Counted from the stretch's first letter, positions 30,745 through 37,990 are shown. The stretch: DNA of 64,000 bases from Candidatus Dojkabacteria bacterium (GCA_016932785.1 JAFGCJ010000002.1:145777-209776); one strand, 5' to 3'. The notes: a model not told the origin generated them from the letters alone. Numbers and translations: made by a program.

Positions 30745-33207
30745 CTAACCGTCTAGCTTACCTTTAACAGCTCTCTCAATATTCTTTATTATTTTCTCGC
30801 GTAATGTATCAATATCGTCTTCCTTAAGTGTTTTCTTGTTACTCTGCATTGTTACAGTAACCGTCGTCTTTTTCTTTCCTGAATTTTTCTTATCAATATA
30901 TATGTCCTTACAGGTAACACTGCGTACCAGATTATCCTTACTTTCAATCCCCAGAATTGCTTCACGAATTGCCTTATACTGAACGTCAGAATCAGTAATA
31001 AAGCAGAAATCATGTTCCACAGATGGGTACCTTGACGGTTCAATGTAATCAGGAAAATCCTGTATATATTGATTAATACCGTCCAATCTAATCTCGAAGG
31101 CACTTGTTCCCTCAGGCACATTCATCTCTCCTGTTGTATCAAAGTCAACCTGTCCAATAATCCCGGCGAGATCTCCTTCGACATAAACAAACGCCGTTCT
31201 ACCAGGATGATAAGAATTCAAAGCATATTCAATCCACTCCGGCATCTTTCCTGGAGTTGCCTTTCCAAGCTGTTCAAAATCCCAGCTGGAAATATTCAAT
31301 GCCTTCAACAAAGACTCAAGATAAAGCTTTGCATGATAAAAAGATTCCGAATGAGCCAAGCACAGATGAACAGGTTCCTCTGGCAGCTGACCTTTTGGCA
31401 ACTTCTTGCCGTGGACCATATCTATTTCAAAAAGTGTGACCTCTTGCCTATTCTTAAAATTCAAGGCAACCTTTTCCAACACAGAAGGAAGAAGAACTGG
31501 ACGCATGTACTCAAGATCAGGAGAAAGAGCATTGACCAATCTATAATATCCTTCTAGCCCTAGACCACACTTTTTATACAAATCTTCTCCTACAAACGCG
31601 TATGTATAAATCTCGTTAGCGCCAAGACTCTTTAGAGCGTCTTTCACTCTGATTCTTTTTTCTCGTGTTTTGTTATGAGATACAGGATGGATTTTTCTTG
31701 TAGGTAAAGTGGTTTCCAACCTATCGTAGCCATAAATCCTAACGATCTCCTCAGCTATATCTTCTGGTATATTCAAATCTTTTCTAAACGTCGGAATCCT
31801 GACCGAGAAAATCTTCGACTTTTCGTCTTGATCCACAGCCAGGCACAATCTATGAAGGATATCTTTCATTTCCTTATCAGAAATATCCGCTCCGATTCGT
31901 TTTCTTAAGTAGTCAGGATCAACAGAAACAGAGTGCTCTTTTACCGGTTCCTTATAATCATCATAGATTTGCGAGGCTAGAGTACCCCCAGAAAGCTCCT
32001 CTATCATCTGTATTCCCTTATACAAAACAGGCTCACAAAGGTTAGGATCAAGTCCCTTGGAAAATCGTGTCACAGCCTCAGAGAAGATACCAGTCTTCAT
32101 AGATGTTCTGCGAATATTGTACATGTCAAGATTTTCTACCTGAAAAACAACTTTTCTTGTATCATCAGAAATTTCAGTATCTTTTCCTCCCATGACTCCC
32201 GCTATACCGATAGGATTTGCACTATCAGCGATAACAATGGTGTCATCATAAAGTTCCACAAGTTGACCATCTATTGTTGTGATTTTCTCACCTGCTTTAG
32301 CCAATCTTATAACAATATTTACTCCGTCTTTGAAGCCTGGGTCCTTAGTAGTTATTTTATCGTAATCAAATGCATGATTAGGCTGTCCCACCTCAAGCAT
32401 AAGATAATTAGAAATATCGACTATATTATTCACAGGATGTATTCCCATCTTGGAGAGACGTATCTGCATCCATTTAGGGGAAGGCTTCACATCAACATTT
32501 TCGATGACAACACAGGTATATCTTGCACATAGAGCTTCAGCATTATTTTCAAGATTTATCTTGTACTTATTTTTGGTAGCTTTGGGTTTAATAAGATCAG
32601 GGTTATACAACCACTCCGGAGGATCAAACTTTGTCGCCTGAATTGCAGATACTTCTCGAGCAATACCAACAACAGAGAAGGTATCCGGTCTATGAGTAAG
32701 AGCTTTATTCTTAATTTCAAGTATTGGGTCCACAAGATCCATAACCTGTTCAAATGCAGAACCTGTTTTGGTTTCCTGAGGCACAGTGTAAACAGTAGTA
32801 TGATCATAATTAAGGCCAATCTCCCTTCCCGAAGGAATCATACCTTCGGAATCAACACCCTTGATATTTGTTTTTTCCACCTTTACTGGGTCTCCGGTCT
32901 CGGCAGATTCCGGAACAATAAGGCCAGGCTTAAGGTAAGGTACCTTGTCGCCAACCTTAACCGGACACTTCTGTACAACAACTGTCTTTTTTGACTTCCC
33001 AACATCTATAACTAAAACCAAAAGGTTGCTGCTTTCGGGATGATCTTTAACTTCAAGAACCTTTGCCACAATAATACCTTTGTAGTTATCACCAAAATTT
33101 TCGATACTTTCAGCTTCGGTAAGAGAAACAGATACTCTCTCCTTAAGCTCTTCTGGAGGAAGCTTTATCTCTGTAAATTCTTTTACCCAATTTAGTGATA
33201 TTTTCAT
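30745..33207 (-). CDS. pheT: Phenylalanine--tRNA ligase beta subunit
   Basis: 820 aa. It begins MKISLNWVKEF and has the N-terminal tRNA-binding OB fold. The B3/4 and B5 regions and the C-terminal FDX-ACB-like domain are present. The stop of pheS overlaps its start. Confidence 0.9.
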   Translation of the reverse strand: MKISLNWVKEFTEIKLPPEELKERVSVSLTEAESIENFGDNYKGIIVAKVLEVKDHPESSNLLVLVIDVGKSKKTVVVQKCPVKVGDKVPYLKPGLIVPESAETGDPVKVEKTNIKGVDSEGMIPSGREIGLNYDHTTVYTVPQETKTGSAFEQVMDLVDPILEIKNKALTHRPDTFSVVGIAREVSAIQATKFDPPEWLYNPDLIKPKATKNKYKINLENNAEALCARYTCVVIENVDVKPSPKWMQIRLSKMGIHPVNNIVDISNYLMLEVGQPNHAFDYDKITTKDPGFKDGVNIVIRLAKAGEKITTIDGQLVELYDDTIVIADSANPIGIAGVMGGKDTEISDDTRKVVFQVENLDMYNIRRTSMKTGIFSEAVTRFSKGLDPNLCEPVLYKGIQMIEELSGGTLASQIYDDYKEPVKEHSVSVDPDYLRKRIGADISDKEMKDILHRLCLAVDQDEKSKIFSVRIPTFRKDLNIPEDIAEEIVRIYGYDRLETTLPTRKIHPVSHNKTREKRIRVKDALKSLGANEIYTYAFVGEDLYKKCGLGLEGYYRLVNALSPDLEYMRPVLLPSVLEKVALNFKNRQEVTLFEIDMVHGKKLPKGQLPEEPVHLCLAHSESFYHAKLYLESLLKALNISSWDFEQLGKATPGKMPEWIEYALNSYHPGRTAFVYVEGDLAGIIGQVDFDTTGEMNVPEGTSAFEIRLDGINQYIQDFPDYIEPSRYPSVEHDFCFITDSDVQYKAIREAILGIESKDNLVRSVTCKDIYIDKKNSGKKKTTVTVTMQSNKKTLKEDDIDTLREKIIKNIERAVKGKLDG

Positions 33208-35036
33208 TTAAACTGTTCCAGAAAATTAAGATCCCCACAATGTATCCTTCTAATATCTTCAATTTGAGCCCCAAGCATTACCAGCCTATCGAAACCAAGC
33301 CCCCATGCAAAACCAGAGTATTCTTTTGGGTCAAGACCACCTTCTCTCAACACATTTGGATGAACAGGGCCACATGGTACAAGCTCAATCCAACCGGAAT
33401 AACCGCAGAAAGGACAACCTTTTTGACCACATACAAGACACTCCACCATAAATTCAAGACCTGGCTCAACAAAAGGGAAATACGAAGGCTGTATTCTATA
33501 CTTAACGTCCTTTCCATAAAAGGCATTCATGAATTCAGATAAAGTACCAATAAGATCAGTGAGAGTAATTCCTTTGTCCACATATATACCTTCTACCTGA
33601 TAAAAGGTGTGTTCATGACTTGCATCAGTAGCTTCGTTCCTAAAACACTTACCGACAACGACCTCTCTTATGGGAGGAGGAACATTTTTCATTATCCTGT
33701 TCTGCATTGCTGAGGTATGAGTTATTGGAATAAGGCCCTCCTCAGTCCAAAAGGTGTCCCACAAATCTCTTGCAGGATGGCCCTCAGGAATATTAAGTGC
33801 CTCAAATACGTAGTAATCATTGTCCAATTGCCTGGCTTCTGTAACATGAAAGCCCATGGTTTCAAATATTTCAAGGGCCTTCTCTCCAATTTGGGTGATC
33901 GGATGTAGAGTGCCGGAACCCGAGATTAGCTTAGGCATTTTTTTAACAGGAGTGTTTGCTGCAAACGGAGCAGTAATATCTATCTGCTCTTCGGTCAGTA
34001 CCTTACCCTGCCTTTGTCTTGTCTCTCTTTTCTTTAATGTTTCTAGATTTTCCCTAACTCTACCCTCAAGAGCATGCACCTGAATTCCAAAATCGGCACG
34101 GAATTTCTTATCTTTACTTCCAATTGTCCTAAGAAGCGCCTTGACAAGACCTTTCTTCCCAAGATACTTCGTTTTAAGTTTAGAAAAACTCATATCTGTT
34201 TTGATAGAAAAATCCTTTCTCATCTGCATATAAGCATCTTTGATTTCGGGGAATTCTATCTCAACTGTTTTCTTCTTTCCCGAAGCCTTCTGAGTAGATG
34301 GCTGTATCTCAACAGAATAGTTTATCTTCAATGTGTCATCCGTTTTTTCAAGCTCACCGATCACTACCTTTCCCACCTCAGAAGTCTTCATAACCAGCGT
34401 ACCTCCATCAGGAATACCAACATTATCTCCAATTGAAACAACCCTTAATGGTTTATTCTCAGGAAGCTTAGGAGGAACCCACCGCGACTTTTTCGCAATT
34501 TCTTCGCCCGAAACAAATTCTATACTGATGTCAAGATCGGATTTAATGATTTGGGAAATTTTATCAGTTAAAGCACTCTTTAGATCAGACGGAATATCTC
34601 CCAAAACTTTATACTCCACATATGCGTTCTTTCCATGTGAACCTTTAACTGCCTTCAATAAATTTGGTGAAAGATTCATGATGAACAATGCTTCCTCAAC
34701 AAGATGACCCGCTGAATGAACAATCATATTCTTATACCTTCGGTCCCAATCTATCTCACAATTTACCTCAGCACCTTCATGAACGTCTCCAGTGACCTTC
34801 CCATAATGGATAATATCACTTCCTACAAGCTTTACTTCTTTTACATCAACCCTGCCGTCTTCTGAAGTAATAGTGCCTTGATCACAAGGCTGTCCACCTC
34901 CCTCAGGATAAAAAACTGTATCTTCCAATATAAAGCCTTGTCTACCCCCATCAACTGTAATCTCCTTAACCTTAGTGTTCAGGCTTTTTGCGTAAGCATC
35001 TTTAAGATATGTTGGAACTTGATTCATCGCAGGCAT
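33204..35036 (-). CDS. pheS: Phenylalanine--tRNA ligase alpha subunit fused to an N-terminal AlaX/tRNA_SAD-like domain
   Basis: 610 aa. The C-terminal part, about 350 aa, is canonical PheS (KYLGKKG, FRNEATDASHEHTFYQVEG, GFAWGLGFDRL). The N-terminal part, about 250 aa, resembles AlaX-type editing domains (FYPEGGGQPCDQG, HSAGHL). Confidence 0.9.
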   Translation of the reverse strand: MPAMNQVPTYLKDAYAKSLNTKVKEITVDGGRQGFILEDTVFYPEGGGQPCDQGTITSEDGRVDVKEVKLVGSDIIHYGKVTGDVHEGAEVNCEIDWDRRYKNMIVHSAGHLVEEALFIMNLSPNLLKAVKGSHGKNAYVEYKVLGDIPSDLKSALTDKISQIIKSDLDISIEFVSGEEIAKKSRWVPPKLPENKPLRVVSIGDNVGIPDGGTLVMKTSEVGKVVIGELEKTDDTLKINYSVEIQPSTQKASGKKKTVEIEFPEIKDAYMQMRKDFSIKTDMSFSKLKTKYLGKKGLVKALLRTIGSKDKKFRADFGIQVHALEGRVRENLETLKKRETRQRQGKVLTEEQIDITAPFAANTPVKKMPKLISGSGTLHPITQIGEKALEIFETMGFHVTEARQLDNDYYVFEALNIPEGHPARDLWDTFWTEEGLIPITHTSAMQNRIMKNVPPPIREVVVGKCFRNEATDASHEHTFYQVEGIYVDKGITLTDLIGTLSEFMNAFYGKDVKYRIQPSYFPFVEPGLEFMVECLVCGQKGCPFCGYSGWIELVPCGPVHPNVLREGGLDPKEYSGFAWGLGFDRLVMLGAQIEDIRRIHCGDLNFLEQFK

Positions 35037-35065
35037 AGTCTAAATTATAGCGCCTGGACCCGAAA

Positions 35066-35410
35066 TTAGGAATTGGCAAATTCAACCAATTGACTAAAGG
35101 TCTCAGGATAGATCACAGCTAATTCCGCCAACACGTGACGGTTAAGCTTTACATCTTTTTCCCTGAGATTGTGATAAAACTTTGAATAGGTTGTTCCATG
35201 TTCTCGGGCAGCAGCATTTATCCTGGAAATCCAAATCCTTCGGAAATCATTCAACCTTTTCTTTCTGTCATTATAAGAATACTGACCAGCATGAAGATAA
35301 GCCTCATGAGCAACCTTATAAAGCTTGCTTTTGGTCATTCGATAACCCTTATTGGCTTTAAGAACCTTCTTATGTCTTCTTCTTGTTACAGTTCCACCCT
35401 TAACTCTCAC
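35066..35410 (-). CDS. rplT: 50S ribosomal protein L20
   Basis: 114 aa, beginning MRVKGGTVTRRRHKKVLKANKGYR. Confidence 0.95.
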   Translation of the reverse strand: MRVKGGTVTRRRHKKVLKANKGYRMTKSKLYKVAHEAYLHAGQYSYNDRKKRLNDFRRIWISRINAAAREHGTTYSKFYHNLREKDVKLNRHVLAELAVIYPETFSQLVEFANS

Positions 35411-35411
35411 T

Positions 35412-35621
35412 TTAGCTACCGATTAACTTAGAAATTCTTTTTTCATCTGCCTTGGATACCTTGTGACTTGGAAGAACCCTATGCTTTCTTCTTGTCGTCC
35501 TTTTTGTCTTTAGATGTCCCTGTCTGCTTTTGTTGTAAAGAATCTTTGCGCCCTTTCCTCCCCTTGGCTTTGTCTTCTTGAACCTCTTTGCTGCTGTCTT
35601 GTTGGTTTTTAGCTTTGGCAT
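35412..35621 (-). CDS. rpmI: 50S ribosomal protein L35
   Basis: The internal start gives MPKLKTNKTAAKRFKKT..., 69 aa. The longer 92-aa ORF in the track has an implausible N-terminal extension. Confidence 0.9.
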   Translation of the reverse strand: MPKLKTNKTAAKRFKKTKPRGGKGAKILYNKSRQGHLKTKRTTRRKHRVLPSHKVSKADEKRISKLIGS

Positions 35622-36234
35622 AAGTTTTTTTACCTTTCTCATCGGGAGACTCAGACGACTGTGTCTTCCCGCTAAACCCTTTAAATACAATAGAAATCCG
35701 TCTTCCTTCGAAAGACGGTTTGGAATCGATAGTACTATACTCAGAAAGTGCTGTCAACAATTCGTTTAGAAGGTCCTTTGATTGTTCTACAGGTGTACGT
35801 CCCTTGCGAGTCACAGTCACTTTAACATTATGGCCCTTGTCAAGAAACTCTTTTGCACGTTTCAAAAGCCTATCTCTATCTGCAGTGTCTATAAAAGTTC
35901 CAAATCTAACCTCTTTCAACTCTTTTTGCTTATGTTTCCTGGCATTTTTCTCTTTCTTCTTCTGCTGATATATGAATTTCGACCAAGACATGATTTTGCA
36001 TACAGGAGGACTTGCTTTAGGTGCAACCTCAATCAGATCGAGATCCGCCTTCTTTGCCAAAGACATAGCCTCTTCTATGGGAACAATACCATGGTTCTCA
36101 CCTTCTGCATCAATGAGCTGAACCTCCTTGCTCCTTATGAATTCGTTCTTATTGTACTTGTGTCTCCAAGTTCCTCTAGTATAGTCACGACCTCTATTGT
36201 AGCTCCTTCTGGAATAGTATCTATTTCCCGCCAT
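35479..36234 (-). CDS. infC: Translation initiation factor IF-3 with Lys-rich C-terminal extension
   Basis: 251 aa. The core is IRSKEVQLIDAEGENHGIVPIEEAMSLAKKADLDLIEVAPKASPPVCKIM ... GRRISIVFK. The frame then stays open for about 60 more codons and overlaps rpmI out of frame. Confidence 0.85.
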   Translation of the reverse strand: MAGNRYYSRRSYNRGRDYTRGTWRHKYNKNEFIRSKEVQLIDAEGENHGIVPIEEAMSLAKKADLDLIEVAPKASPPVCKIMSWSKFIYQQKKKEKNARKHKQKELKEVRFGTFIDTADRDRLLKRAKEFLDKGHNVKVTVTRKGRTPVEQSKDLLNELLTALSEYSTIDSKPSFEGRRISIVFKGFSGKTQSSESPDEKGKKTYAKAKNQQDSSKEVQEDKAKGRKGRKDSLQQKQTGTSKDKKDDKKKA

Positions 36235-37990
36235 TTTCTTTTGTTTCTATCTCCTTTTTAATTGAAGTAATAAACTCATCCAAATCTACCATTCCGGTAT
36301 CCTTCTTACCATGAGGGCGAACGGAAACTGTACCATTTTCCTCCTCTTTATCTCCAACCACAAGAACATAGGGAATTTTTTCAATTTCTGCGTTTCTAAT
36401 TCTAGATTGCATCGTTTCACTTCTACTATCAACTGTAACAGAAATTCCGTTTTTTTCCAACCTTTGCTTGGCTTCATGAGAATATTTCTCATGTTTATCC
36501 GATATTGGGATTACTCGAACCTGTTCAGGCGCGAGCCATAGAGGAAAAACTCCCCCATAATTCTCAATCAAAATACCCAGAAACCTCTCTATTGAACCAT
36601 AAACAACCCGATGAATCATTATCGGTCTCTGTTTTTCGCCAGATTCATCGGTATACTCAAGGTTGAAATTCTCAGGTTGAGCAAAATCAAGCTGGATAGT
36701 ACCACATTGCCATGTTCTTCCCATAGAATCTGCAAGATGAAAATCAAACTTAGGTCCATAGAATGCTCCATCTCCTTCATTTATCTTCGAAACAATTCCC
36801 TCTTCCTTCAACACCTCCTTCATTATTTTCTCTGCGGTCTCCCAAACCTCATCCGATCCAATCGATTTCTCAGGTCTGGTGGACAGTTCTATATGATGAA
36901 CTTCAAGACCGAAGGTTTTGTAAAAGTCCAGACACAGATGTATAACCTCCTTAAGCTCGCTCTTAGTTTGCTCAGGAGTACAGAAAATGTGTGCATCATC
37001 CTGAGTAAATTCTCTAACTCTAAGTAAGCCGTGAGTTTCGCCGGAGCTTTCATACCTGTTTACAACACCTATTTCCCCCACTCTTAAAGGGAGTTCCTTA
37101 TATGAGTGCTGTCTTGTATTGTAGATGAGCATCCCGCCATTACAGTTCATTGGTTTTACTGCATAGTTGTAATCGTCTGAATCGAACGTTTTAGCAAGAT
37201 ATATTTTCTCTGCATAGTTATCCAAGTGGCCGCTTCTCTTCCAGACTTCCTTAGTCATTAGAACAGGCGTTCGAACCTCTACGTAACCTTTCGCATAGTG
37301 AACCTCACGCCAGTATTCGATAAGTCTATTAATAATCGCCAACCCTCTAGGATGCCAAAAAGCATTGCCAGGACTCTCCTCATGAAAAGAGAAAAGATCC
37401 ATCTGTTTACCAAGTATCCTATGATCCACTGCTTTCAATTTCTCTTGAAGTTCTACAAAATCATCTAATTCCTTCTGATTCTCAAATGCAAGAGCATAGA
37501 TTCTCTGCAACATAGGTTTGTTTTCATCACCTCTCCAATAGGCACCAGCTATTCGATCAAGTTTCACTGCACCAATCTGCCCTGTTCTCTCAAGATGAGG
37601 GCCTCTGCACATATCCATAAAATCATCACTGCCGGTAACATAGAAGCTTATCTTCTTGTCAGGAATATCTTTAAGCAAATCAGCCTTATAATTTTGGCCA
37701 GACTTCTTAAAGTATTCTTCAGTCTCTTCCCGGGACATAAATTTCTGTTCAAAAGGAAGATCTGCCTTAATTATCTTCTTCATTTCGGCTTCAATTTTCG
37801 GAAGGTCCTCTTCCTTCAGGGGACGGGGAAGATCGAAATCATAGTAGAACCCATTCTCAATGGCCGGTCCTATCCCAAGCTTGGCATCTGGAAAAAGCTT
37901 CAAAACTGCCTGCGCCATGACGTGGGATGCAGAATGTCTCATGGTCTCAAGTTTTTCTTGTTTGTTTTTGTTACCTTTTTTGTCGCTCAT
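36221..37990 (-). CDS. thrS: Threonine--tRNA ligase (no TGS domain)
   Basis: 589 aa. It has the tRNA_SAD motifs HSASH and CRGPH. Class II motifs are present (RYESSGETHGLLRVREFTQDDAH), followed by a C-terminal anticodon-binding domain. Confidence 0.95.
   Translation of the reverse strand: MSDKKGNKNKQEKLETMRHSASHVMAQAVLKLFPDAKLGIGPAIENGFYYDFDLPRPLKEEDLPKIEAEMKKIIKADLPFEQKFMSREETEEYFKKSGQNYKADLLKDIPDKKISFYVTGSDDFMDMCRGPHLERTGQIGAVKLDRIAGAYWRGDENKPMLQRIYALAFENQKELDDFVELQEKLKAVDHRILGKQMDLFSFHEESPGNAFWHPRGLAIINRLIEYWREVHYAKGYVEVRTPVLMTKEVWKRSGHLDNYAEKIYLAKTFDSDDYNYAVKPMNCNGGMLIYNTRQHSYKELPLRVGEIGVVNRYESSGETHGLLRVREFTQDDAHIFCTPEQTKSELKEVIHLCLDFYKTFGLEVHHIELSTRPEKSIGSDEVWETAEKIMKEVLKEEGIVSKINEGDGAFYGPKFDFHLADSMGRTWQCGTIQLDFAQPENFNLEYTDESGEKQRPIMIHRVVYGSIERFLGILIENYGGVFPLWLAPEQVRVIPISDKHEKYSHEAKQRLEKNGISVTVDSRSETMQSRIRNAEIEKIPYVLVVGDKEEENGTVSVRPHGKKDTGMVDLDEFITSIKKEIETKENGGK

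Follow-up and report, generated by a model that had tools for sequence, protein, structure and literature searches.

An AlaX-M-type module with an altered zinc half-site fused to the PheRS alpha subunit of Dojkabacteria

We analyzed a 64,000-nucleotide stretch of DNA from Candidatus Dojkabacteria bacterium (hereafter, the window) and found its pheS gene to encode a 610-aa protein in which a complete AlaX-M-type module (aa 1–245) and a complete bacterial PheS are joined by a disordered linker of ~15 residues. Current thinking pairs each type of editing domain with the synthetase whose errors it corrects, AlaX-type domains going with AlaRS and ThrRS and B3/B4 with PheRS. From the conservation of the module and its repeated linkage to PheRS, we infer that it is still a hydrolase, a catalytic aminoacyl-tRNA deacylase dedicated to PheRS and tethered to a normal PheS for extra proofreading; we regard this reading as evenly balanced between right and wrong. 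In the literature, we found no description of a PheRS–AlaX fusion in any of the three kinds of linkage reported below.

Results

The fusion gene is an uninterrupted reading frame (Table 1) within a thrS-infC-rpmI-rplT-pheS-pheT operon of a tiny-genome bacterium (Dojkabacteria/CPR). The order thrS-infC-rpmI-rplT-pheST recurs in the related loci L006, L007, L008, L090, and L091, and the TGA stop of pheS overlaps the ATG start of pheT (ATGA). A preliminary description, made from the sequence alone, had proposed a fusion of PheS to an N-terminal AlaX/tRNA_SAD-type domain, and the motifs that it quoted are all present (Table 1), including KYLGKKGLVKALL at aa 290–302. The NCBI record of the same protein is a 607-aa PheS from Candidatus Dojkabacteria bacterium (P0121). 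Met codons 270 and 272 are possible internal starts of PheS, and a separate PheS made from them was unsupported as no Shine–Dalgarno-like sequence was found upstream of either. The ThrRS of the window has a tRNA_SAD domain of its own (Pfam). No alaS was found within the window, and no tRNA-Phe gene, sought for a G:U pair in the acceptor stem, was found in the window or in the relatives' loci examined.

Table 1. Features of the pheS fusion and its operon, in positions counted from the first letter of the window
Feature	Position	Strand	Residues or basis
pheS fusion ORF, 610 aa	33204..35036	-	ORF call on window
AlaX-M-type module, N-terminal beta-barrel + editing domain	34302..35036	-	aa 1-245
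Gly-rich loop FYPEGGGQPCDQG	34875..34913	-	aa 42-54
HxxxH motif HSAGH, H107 + H111	34704..34718	-	aa 107-111
His134 in clade motif KG.HG	34635..34637	-	48/48 fusions
PDGGTLV, counterpart of CxxxH half-site	34392..34412	-	aa 209-215; alignment to 2e1b
Hydrophilic Lys-rich linker	34251..34301	-	aa 246-262; AF2 pLDDT
PheS N-terminal coiled-coil arm	33993..34250	-	aa 263-348; Pfam + AF2 helices
PheS class II catalytic core + stop codon	33204..33992	-	aa 349-610; tRNA-synt_2d, TIGR00468
pheT, full-length beta subunit with B3/B4 editing domain	30745..33207	-	Pfam domains
rplT	35066-35410	-	ORF upstream of pheS, same operon
rpmI	35412-35621	-	ORF upstream of pheS, same operon
infC	35479-36234	-	ORF upstream of pheS, same operon
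thrS	36221-37990	-	ORF upstream of pheS, same operon; upstream block 35066..37990

In profile searches with Pfam and NCBIfam, the N-terminal region matched the C-terminal part of tRNA-synt_2c (aa 23–99, 1.3e-14) and AlaXM (NF040865; aa 10–231, 8.5e-37), the latter with 127.1 bits and thus below the curated equivalog cutoff of 300. The rest of the protein matched Phe_tRNA-synt_N (aa 286–339), tRNA-synt_2d (aa 373–609, 1.9e-78), and the pheS model TIGR00468 with 247.2 bits, above the cutoff of 237.45; by equivalog score, class II core, and coiled coil, it is a normal bacterial PheRS alpha subunit, as had been described. A phmmer search of the PDB matched the module to 2e1b (Pyrococcus horikoshii AlaX-M; 2e-14). 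The AF2 model of the module had a pLDDT of 92.5, and Foldseek placed it with the AlaX-M structures 2e1b, 9iuw, and 3kew and the same region of archaeal AlaRS (E of 1e-14 to 6e-18; TM of 0.72–0.80 when query-normalized and 0.84–0.88 when target-normalized), with chains of mL39 among the distant matches. The module is thus predicted to have the two-domain AlaX-M fold, a beta-barrel and an AlaRS/ThrRS-type editing domain. In the full-length AF2 model, the module and PheS are both well folded and joined by a short linker (pLDDT <50 at aa 248–258), after which helices form the PheS arm. Across the fusions, the intermodule region (aa 244–289 in the window, including the start of the PheS arm) varies from 27 to 68 aa with no sequence conservation, and the linker ends at the point where the N termini of unfused PheS start. 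Profiles, alignment to 2e1b, and predicted structure agree that the proposed fusion is genuine.

The adjacent PheT contains tRNA_bind, B3_4, B5, CLM, and FDX-ACB domains (Pfam), and so retains both the B3/B4 editing domain attributed to it earlier and all its tRNA-binding domains. It has intact QPNHAFD and GVMGGKDT editing signatures and retains N254, H265, G318, A356, and GVMGGxxT from the published list of editing-site residues (PMC3553970). Two deviations, R244H and E334Q, also occur in L090 and L091, the nearest relatives without the fusion. With the site intact and its deviations shared with unfused forms, we rejected the idea that the module compensates for degenerate PheT editing; because the site looks intact, no unmet editing need is evident. 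The window PheS is 64–72% identical to unfused Dojkabacteria PheS, and when close fused and unfused forms were compared, the only fusion-specific change in the core was an I/L difference at position 598. The Ala of GFAWG, the equivalent of E. coli A294, is kept, and a widened Phe pocket in the fused PheS was rejected on these grounds.

We assessed conservation in 48 full-length fusions, 42 of them within the best 120 hits and the others from further searches. The two His of the HxxxH motif are nearly invariant (H107 in 47 and H111 in all 48), as are G211 and T213 (48/48) and G212 (47/48). In the Gly-rich loop, which in the window begins FYPEGGGQ (aa 42–49), residues F42, Y43, P44, G46, G47, G48, Q49, P50, D52, and G54 are present in at least 90% of the fusions and are invariant in A1/A3. 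The CxxxH half-site of AlaX-M is absent: in the alignment to 2e1b, IPCGGTHV stands opposite IPDGGTLV, Cys being replaced by Asp (D210) and His by Leu (L214), as the preliminary description had noted. Position 210 is Asp in 42 of the 48 fusions and Cys in 6, while position 214 is Q in 26, L in 11, H in 6, I in 3, and M in the remaining 2; the six proteins with Cys210 also have the His. Ordinary stand-alone AlaX-M proteins also commonly have Asp in place of the Cys (QADGGTHV in many archaeal loci), and because DxxxH is frequent in otherwise canonical proteins, only the missing last His is unusual within the half-site. A further change affects the TGNQ motif, which has become KG.HG (KGSHG in the window). 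Its last-but-one residue, H134, stands where canonical AlaX-M proteins have Q, S, or A (Q in TGNQ itself) and is found in all 48 fusions and, whatever the residues at 210 and 214, in all members of the clade. Across AlaX-M relatives, the site forms a series of QCH, QDH, HCH, HDH, and HDQ.

The fusions share a mean pairwise identity of 41% in the module and 44% in the PheS core, and distances in one half track those in the other (Pearson 0.68). By these values, the module is under purifying selection and changes at much the same slow pace as the PheS core. The site had earlier been called half-degenerate and the module possibly inactive; the near-invariant pocket, the Asp shared by most fusions with Cys and His retained together in the others, and an evolution no faster than that of the core argue against both descriptions and point to a conserved variant of the zinc site, remodeled and not lost, in a module that is conserved and not decaying. 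Where E. coli AlaRS has R693, the residue behind G3:U70 dependence (PMC11260482), the whole clade shows a gap or a nonconserved residue; AlaX proteins without such a residue have a broad tRNA range and edit several Ser-charged tRNAs (PMC11260482). Cys-to-Ala mutants of AlaX and AlaRS are inactive (PMC11260482) and the fourth ligand is gone, so the module, with Asp and no last His, need not be active.

Full-length fusions were found on at least 48 independent contigs, with core identities of 35–73%; in a set of 1.84 billion representatives, they fall into about 12 clusters at 50% identity. All those carrying a source name are from Patescibacteria/Dojkabacteria, and three distant fusion-bearing contigs share the operon of the window. 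The module belongs to a Patescibacteria-centered AlaX-M subfamily that is linked to PheRS in three independent ways: as an N-terminal fusion to PheS (the window and L006–L010), as a C-terminal extension of PheT in three assemblies (L019/P0389, L093/P0394, and L094/P0395, the latter two 39–40% identical to the L019 protein), and as a separate gene between rplT and pheS (L014, with an alaX-like gene, a NUDIX gene, and pheS). Some of the PheT-fusion lineages have a short PheT without the B2 and B8 tRNA-binding domains. Many members are free-standing and away from pheST (L001, L004, L011, and L012); for P0023 and P0004, gene contexts ruled out free-standing members being pheST neighbors. The close relatives L090 and L091 have unfused PheS despite identical synteny. 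Given these unfused PheS and the free-standing forms, the module is neither obligatorily tied to PheRS nor indispensable. Fusion or operon linkage of the subfamily to other synthetases was not seen among the contexts examined, and a neighbor-joining tree of the module did not cleanly separate fused and free-standing forms. A scan of GTDB genomes for the pattern FYPxGGGQP gave at least 600 matches, several of them in MAGs whose titles (e.g., "uncultured Gammaproteobacteria") look unreliable; the closest fusions were not among the matches listed.

Discussion

Of the two roles first suggested for the module, tRNA binding and a new proofreading specificity, proofreading is favored by the way its residues are conserved and by its recurring linkage to PheRS. 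The enzyme consists of a complete AlaX-M-type module, a proposed deacylase, joined through a short flexible linker to the N terminus of PheS. In the remodeled active site, HxxxH, the Gly-rich loop, and GGT are kept, the change of TGNQ to KG.HG adds the invariant His134, the zinc Cys is replaced by Asp, and the fourth-ligand His by Q, L, I, or M; H107, H111, and D210, possibly with H134, would probably form the metal or general-base site. The choice of tRNA would not depend on G3:U70, the substrate being reached by the module being held on PheRS, and aminoacyl-tRNA-Phe leaving the alpha-subunit active site would receive extra proofreading beside the B3/B4 site of PheT. Our default guess for the residue removed is a small one, such as Ser, Gly, or Ala on tRNA-Phe, and a more novel alternative would be a Phe analogue not handled by B3/B4. 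Misactivation by PheRS is not known for the small residues on which AlaX enzymes act, a point against this reading.

A bolder version, possible although we lean clearly against it, makes the subfamily a PheRS-specific "third sieve" with a new amino-acid specificity, a rewired His-His-Asp(+His134) site, and delivery by tethering, at the alpha N terminus or the beta C terminus, in place of G3:U70 recognition. Its substrates might be misacylated tRNA-Phe that B3/B4 cannot clear or Ala or Ser put on tRNA-Phe by another synthetase, and PheRS in a part of the Candidate Phyla Radiation would then have two unrelated editing sites.

The module might instead be a generic trans-editing factor for Ser- and Gly-tRNA-Ala, and perhaps Ser-tRNA-Thr, that is merely coexpressed with PheRS and lacks any role specific to tRNA-Phe, the fusion providing only stoichiometric expression in a reduced genome. 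Its fold and most of its catalytic motifs are those of AlaX-M, free-standing members of the subfamily carry the same site in unrelated neighborhoods, and the activity of AlaX proteins lacking the R693-type residue on several Ser-charged tRNAs (PMC11260482) fits such a role. A generic factor would not, however, be expected to show three different linkages to PheRS (alpha N terminus, beta C terminus, and a gene inside the pheST operon) and none to another synthetase among the contexts examined, nor a replaced TGNQ motif on the substrate side. As the repeated linkage is hard to explain other than by a PheRS-specific partnership, we consider this alternative unlikely. We judge it quite improbable, too, that the module is catalytically dead and aids the binding of tRNA-Phe by PheRS as an appended domain, like that of apicomplexan TrpRS or like mL39. 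The AlaX-like domain (AXD) of Pf-WRS is required both to bind tRNA and for aminoacylation, with editing not thought to be among its roles (PMC3680381), mL39, a ThrRS-like mitoribosomal protein, is a distant structural match, the fourth zinc ligand is lost, and an added binding domain would suit the lineages with a short PheT. Yet the Pf-WRS AXD has all four site residues replaced (PMC3680381), whereas H107, H111, H134, D/C210, GGT, and the Gly-rich loop persist here although overall identity is only ~41%, a pattern expected of a catalytic pocket and not of a binding surface, and the window PheT lacks none of its tRNA-binding domains.

An assembly or annotation artefact, a missed stop or frameshift joining an alaX gene to pheS, was raised at the outset, and one relative, L014, does have an unfused arrangement. 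But the frame is continuous in the window and NCBI annotates the same product, the 48 full-length fusions come from NCBI, JGI, ENA, and Logan assemblies and the operon is conserved, and AF2 predicts two well-folded modules; the chance of an artefact is negligible, and the idea is refuted for practical purposes.

CPR bacteria have repeatedly and in different ways attached an AlaX-type module with a conserved, rewired pocket to PheRS. An active module would imply a phenylalanine-decoding error beyond the reach of the known PheRS editing site, and that the AlaX fold can do without the Cys and the final His of its "zinc-binding" signature; an inactive one would be the bacterial equivalent of the AlaX-like domain with which apicomplexan TrpRS binds tRNA. 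The results correct the current automatic annotation as "PheS" or "alanine--tRNA ligase-related protein" and offer a compact system for how trans-editing factors gain tRNA specificity through tethering.

Among known systems, the predicted two-domain fold is that of AlaX-M or type II AlaXp, as in P. horikoshii PH0108 (2e1b), P. furiosus (9iuw), and Clostridium perfringens (3kew), with which the module shares the Gly-rich loop, HxxxH, GGT, and a similar length (roughly 215–240 aa); it differs in its covalent fusion to PheS, in DGGTL at the half-site, in KGSHG for TGNQ, and in lacking an equivalent of E. coli AlaRS R693. The editing domains of AlaRS and ThrRS are likewise homologous hydrolytic domains in cis on a class II synthetase, but they edit the products of their own synthetase (Ser and Gly on tRNA-Ala, Ser on tRNA-Thr), whereas PheRS normally edits through the unrelated B3/B4 domain of its beta subunit. 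AlaRS and ThrRS are the sole entries with an AlaX domain in a 2024 catalogue of synthetase architectures (PMC11580382). The AXD of apicomplexan TrpRS is also an AlaX-family module attached through a flexible linker to the N terminus of a synthetase other than AlaRS or ThrRS (PMC3680381). The AXD is, however, of the short type I, has lost all four site residues, and is considered to function in tRNA binding only (PMC3680381), whereas the window module is of type II, with two domains, a strongly conserved pocket, and conserved HxxxH and D/C210. B3/B4 and its stand-alone relative CtdA resemble it in its proposed role, as post-transfer proofreading associated with PheRS, but have an unrelated fold and unrelated catalytic residues. 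B3/B4 acts on Tyr and m-Tyr; the AlaX-type module would give the same enzyme another hydrolytic site of a different kind.

Architecture of the fused protein

The fused pheS is the fifth gene of the cluster thrS-infC-rpmI-rplT-pheS-pheT, and its stop codon TGA shares bases with the pheT start codon (ATGA). The motifs that the preliminary description had quoted were all recovered at their positions in the ORF. Profile searches assigned aa 10-231 to an AlaX-M-like protein (NCBIfam NF040865, E 8.5e-37), with the C-terminal part of Pfam tRNA-synt_2c matching aa 23-99, and placed the PheS coiled-coil at aa 286-339 (Pfam/NCBIfam profiles) and the class II core at aa 373-609 (E 1.9e-78); the fusion scored above the TIGR00468 cut-off. 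The N-termini of unfused PheS proteins aligned exactly at the end of the linker, and the product thus joins an entire AlaX-M through a linker to an entire PheS. The region between the modules (aa 244-289 in the window's protein) is 27 to 68 residues long in the various fusions and is unconserved in sequence.

Among solved structures, aa 1-259 were closest to AlaX-M from Pyrococcus horikoshii and P. furiosus and to the corresponding segment of archaeal AlaRS. The AlphaFold prediction for aa 1-262 was confident (pLDDT 92.5) and superposed on AlaX-M structures with TM 0.72-0.88, which argues against the N-terminal region lacking the AlaX-like fold that had been proposed for it. The full-length model contained two well-folded modules with a linker of pLDDT < 50 at aa 248-258, and its low pTM (0.50) indicates that the modules have no fixed mutual orientation.

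Features of the window and of the compared loci
Feature	Location	Strand	Details
Fused pheS ORF	33204..35036	-	610 codons, uninterrupted frame
CxxC...CxxC motif in PheS core hairpin	33405-33440	-	aa 533-544
rplT-pheS spacer	35037-35065	-	29 nt
rpmI	35412-35621	-	
infC	35479-36234	-	251 aa
ThrRS gene	36221-37990	-	589 aa
PheT adjoining a fused PheS	L006:9839-11860		673 aa
PheT-AlaX fusion	L019:2096-4681		module C-terminal, after B3_4, B5, CLM
PheT-AlaX fusion P0394	L093:1013-3568		
PheT-AlaX fusion P0395	L094:1197-3743		
AlaX-like module and small NUDIX hydrolase gene directly after it	L014:3983-5052		
Small NUDIX hydrolase gene directly after AlaX-like module	L019:4674-5147		

Occurrence of the fusion

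NCBI annotates the same product as a 607-aa PheS of Candidatus Dojkabacteria bacterium (P0121). Full-length fusions of 566-634 aa made up 42 of the 120 best database matches and came from NCBI, JGI, ENA and Logan assemblies; together with proteins from further searches they formed a set of 48. When a library was clustered at 50% identity, the whole architecture was present in about 12 clusters, and the operon order was the same in three distant fusion-bearing contigs (L006, L007, L008). The continuous frame, the NCBI annotation, the 48 fusions and the retained operon rule out an assembly or annotation artefact. Two close relatives with identical synteny (L090, L091) encode an ordinary PheS of 351-357 aa, so the fusion is patchy within Dojkabacteria. 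Taxonomic placement relies on the few sources that carry a name: Dojkabacteria, Patescibacteria and Roizmanbacteria, with Shapirobacteria for a group of short PheT proteins. When only the N-terminal module was the query, a word-indexed search missed the window's own protein and the 50-58% identical fused relatives, which surfaced only with the full-length query; such searches can therefore overlook domains that are part of longer proteins.

A conserved variant of the putative metal site

Alignment to solved AlaX-M and archaeal AlaRS sequences placed IPDGGTLV of the window opposite IPCGGTHV. Across the 48 fusions, H107 was found in 47 and H111 in all, G211 and T213 in all and G212 in 47. Asp stood at position 210 in 42 fusions and Cys in the other 6. 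Position 214 varied (Q 26, L 11, H 6, I 3, M 2), and Cys210 occurred only together with His214. An additional His, H134 in the motif KG.HG, was present in 48/48 and stands where the TGNQ-type motif of canonical AlaX-M has Q, S or A. The replacement of the zinc Cys by Asp with the last His kept (e.g., QADGGTHV) is common in stand-alone archaeal and bacterial AlaX-M. For positions 134, 210 and 214, the sequence states form a series from Q-C-H through H-C-H or Q-D-H and H-D-H to H-D-(Q/L/I/M), in which the window is H-D-L.

With a mean pairwise identity of 41%, the module is roughly as well conserved as the essential PheS core (44%), and distances between pairs of fusions in one half of the protein correlated with those in the other (Pearson 0.68). 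Together with the residue conservation, this indicates purifying selection on a pocket and not decay. The site described earlier as "half-degenerate" is instead a conserved variant, with D/C210, H107, H111, H134 and GGT kept in 47-48 of the 48 fusions.

PheT, the PheS core and neighboring genes

The expected B3/B4 editing domain is borne out in the adjacent pheT, whose product keeps both editing signatures (QPNHAFD, GVMGGKDT) as well as N254, H265, G318 and A356 (residue list from PMC3553970). Its deviations, R244H and E334Q, are common to the unfused relatives L090 and L091, and the module is therefore not replacing a broken B3/B4. The PheS cores of near fused and near unfused proteins showed only a single I/L difference. 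We found no alaS and no second AlaX within the 64-kb window, and no tRNA-Phe gene in the window or the compared loci.

A hairpin in the PheS core contains a CxxC...CxxC motif (CLVCGQKGCPFC) that is at least 90% conserved in aligned Patescibacteria PheS, fused and unfused alike, and is probably a structural zinc knuckle. In the short rplT-pheS spacer, a TATAAT ends 9 nt before the pheS ATG and no obvious Shine-Dalgarno sequence is present, which suggests an internal transcript with a very short leader or coupling to rplT. Many Patescibacteria have a short PheT of ~565-665 aa (P0390-P0459) with no Pfam match for tRNA_bind (B2) or FDX-ACB (B8); a few bear NCBI names such as "beta subunit-related protein" (Shapirobacteria). 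The PheT beside the fused PheS of L006 lacks tRNA_bind and has a weak FDX-ACB match. In the window ThrRS, the HxxxH that belongs to the N2 editing domain (RHSASH, ~aa 18-23) follows very soon after the N-terminus; Pfam tRNA_SAD was found in it and the TGS domain was not, and the ThrRS of relatives is similarly short (584-607 aa). The infC product is long (IF3 in relatives, 163-224 aa): it is extended at the N-terminus by an Arg/Tyr-rich stretch and ends in a Lys-rich tail. The coding region of this tail runs ~140 nt past the likely start of rpmI (MPKLKTNK at 35621), in a different frame.

Linkage to PheRS and proposed function of the module

Closest to the module are free-standing proteins of ~240 aa with the same signature (P0004-P0031), and the two examined lie in unrelated neighborhoods. 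In L014, a 239-aa member of this Patescibacteria-centered KG.HG clade is encoded by a gene of its own, which lies between rplT and pheS. Three independent assemblies have an unfused pheS upstream of a PheT with the module fused to its C-terminus, where it occupies the usual place of the FDX-ACB anticodon-binding domain. P0394 and P0395 share 39-40% identity with the L019 protein, and one of the two is named by JGI [quoted passage not shown]. The AlaX parts of these proteins bear the clade signature (H[ST]AGH, KG.H, [PA]DGG[VI][HQ]V). The subfamily is thus tied to PheRS in three genetic arrangements; the neighbor-joining tree is too weak for a count of fusion events. A NUDIX gene follows the separate AlaX-like gene in L014 and the PheT C-terminal fusion in L019; module and NUDIX gene are possibly a conserved pair.

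The most likely reading, to which we give about an even chance, is that the module has stayed active as a deacylase and acts together with PheRS. This reading draws on a pocket conserved across sequences only ~41% identical, on three potential metal or general-base residues kept beside a new invariant His, and on repeated independent linkage to both PheRS subunits. The Arg equivalent to R693 of Escherichia coli AlaRS, reported to contact G3:U70 (PMC11260482), was missing throughout the clade, and its loss also speaks for this reading: the choice of tRNA may come from tethering to PheRS. Catalysis, the binding of a metal and the amino acid that would be removed are all inferred. One main rival, a generic Ser/Gly trans-editing factor merely coexpressed with PheRS, would fit the free-standing relatives and the broad tRNA range of AlaX proteins with another residue at the R693 position (PMC11260482), but in view of the linkage to both subunits we consider it unlikely. 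The other main rival, a catalytically inactive appendage that binds tRNA and resembles the AlaX-like domain of apicomplexan TrpRS, would fit the loss of the last His (Leu at position 214 in the window's protein); all four site residues are lost in the apicomplexan domain (PMC3680381), and with the pocket conserved here we hold such an appendage to be about equally unlikely.

Comparison with known systems

Each part is already known, be it bacterial PheS, the fold of AlaX-M or editing by B3/B4; the combination of AlaX-M with PheS appears not to have been known previously. A 2024 catalog of synthetase architectures lists the AlaX domain for AlaRS and ThrRS only (PMC11580382), and full-text literature searches found no paper on a PheRS-AlaX fusion. 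Compared with AlaX-M proper, the module has the fold, the Gly-loop and the HxxxH but lacks the CxxxH motif and the R693-type Arg and falls below the NCBIfam cut-off. On these grounds we class it with AlaX-M as a divergent subfamily, found here in a new architecture.
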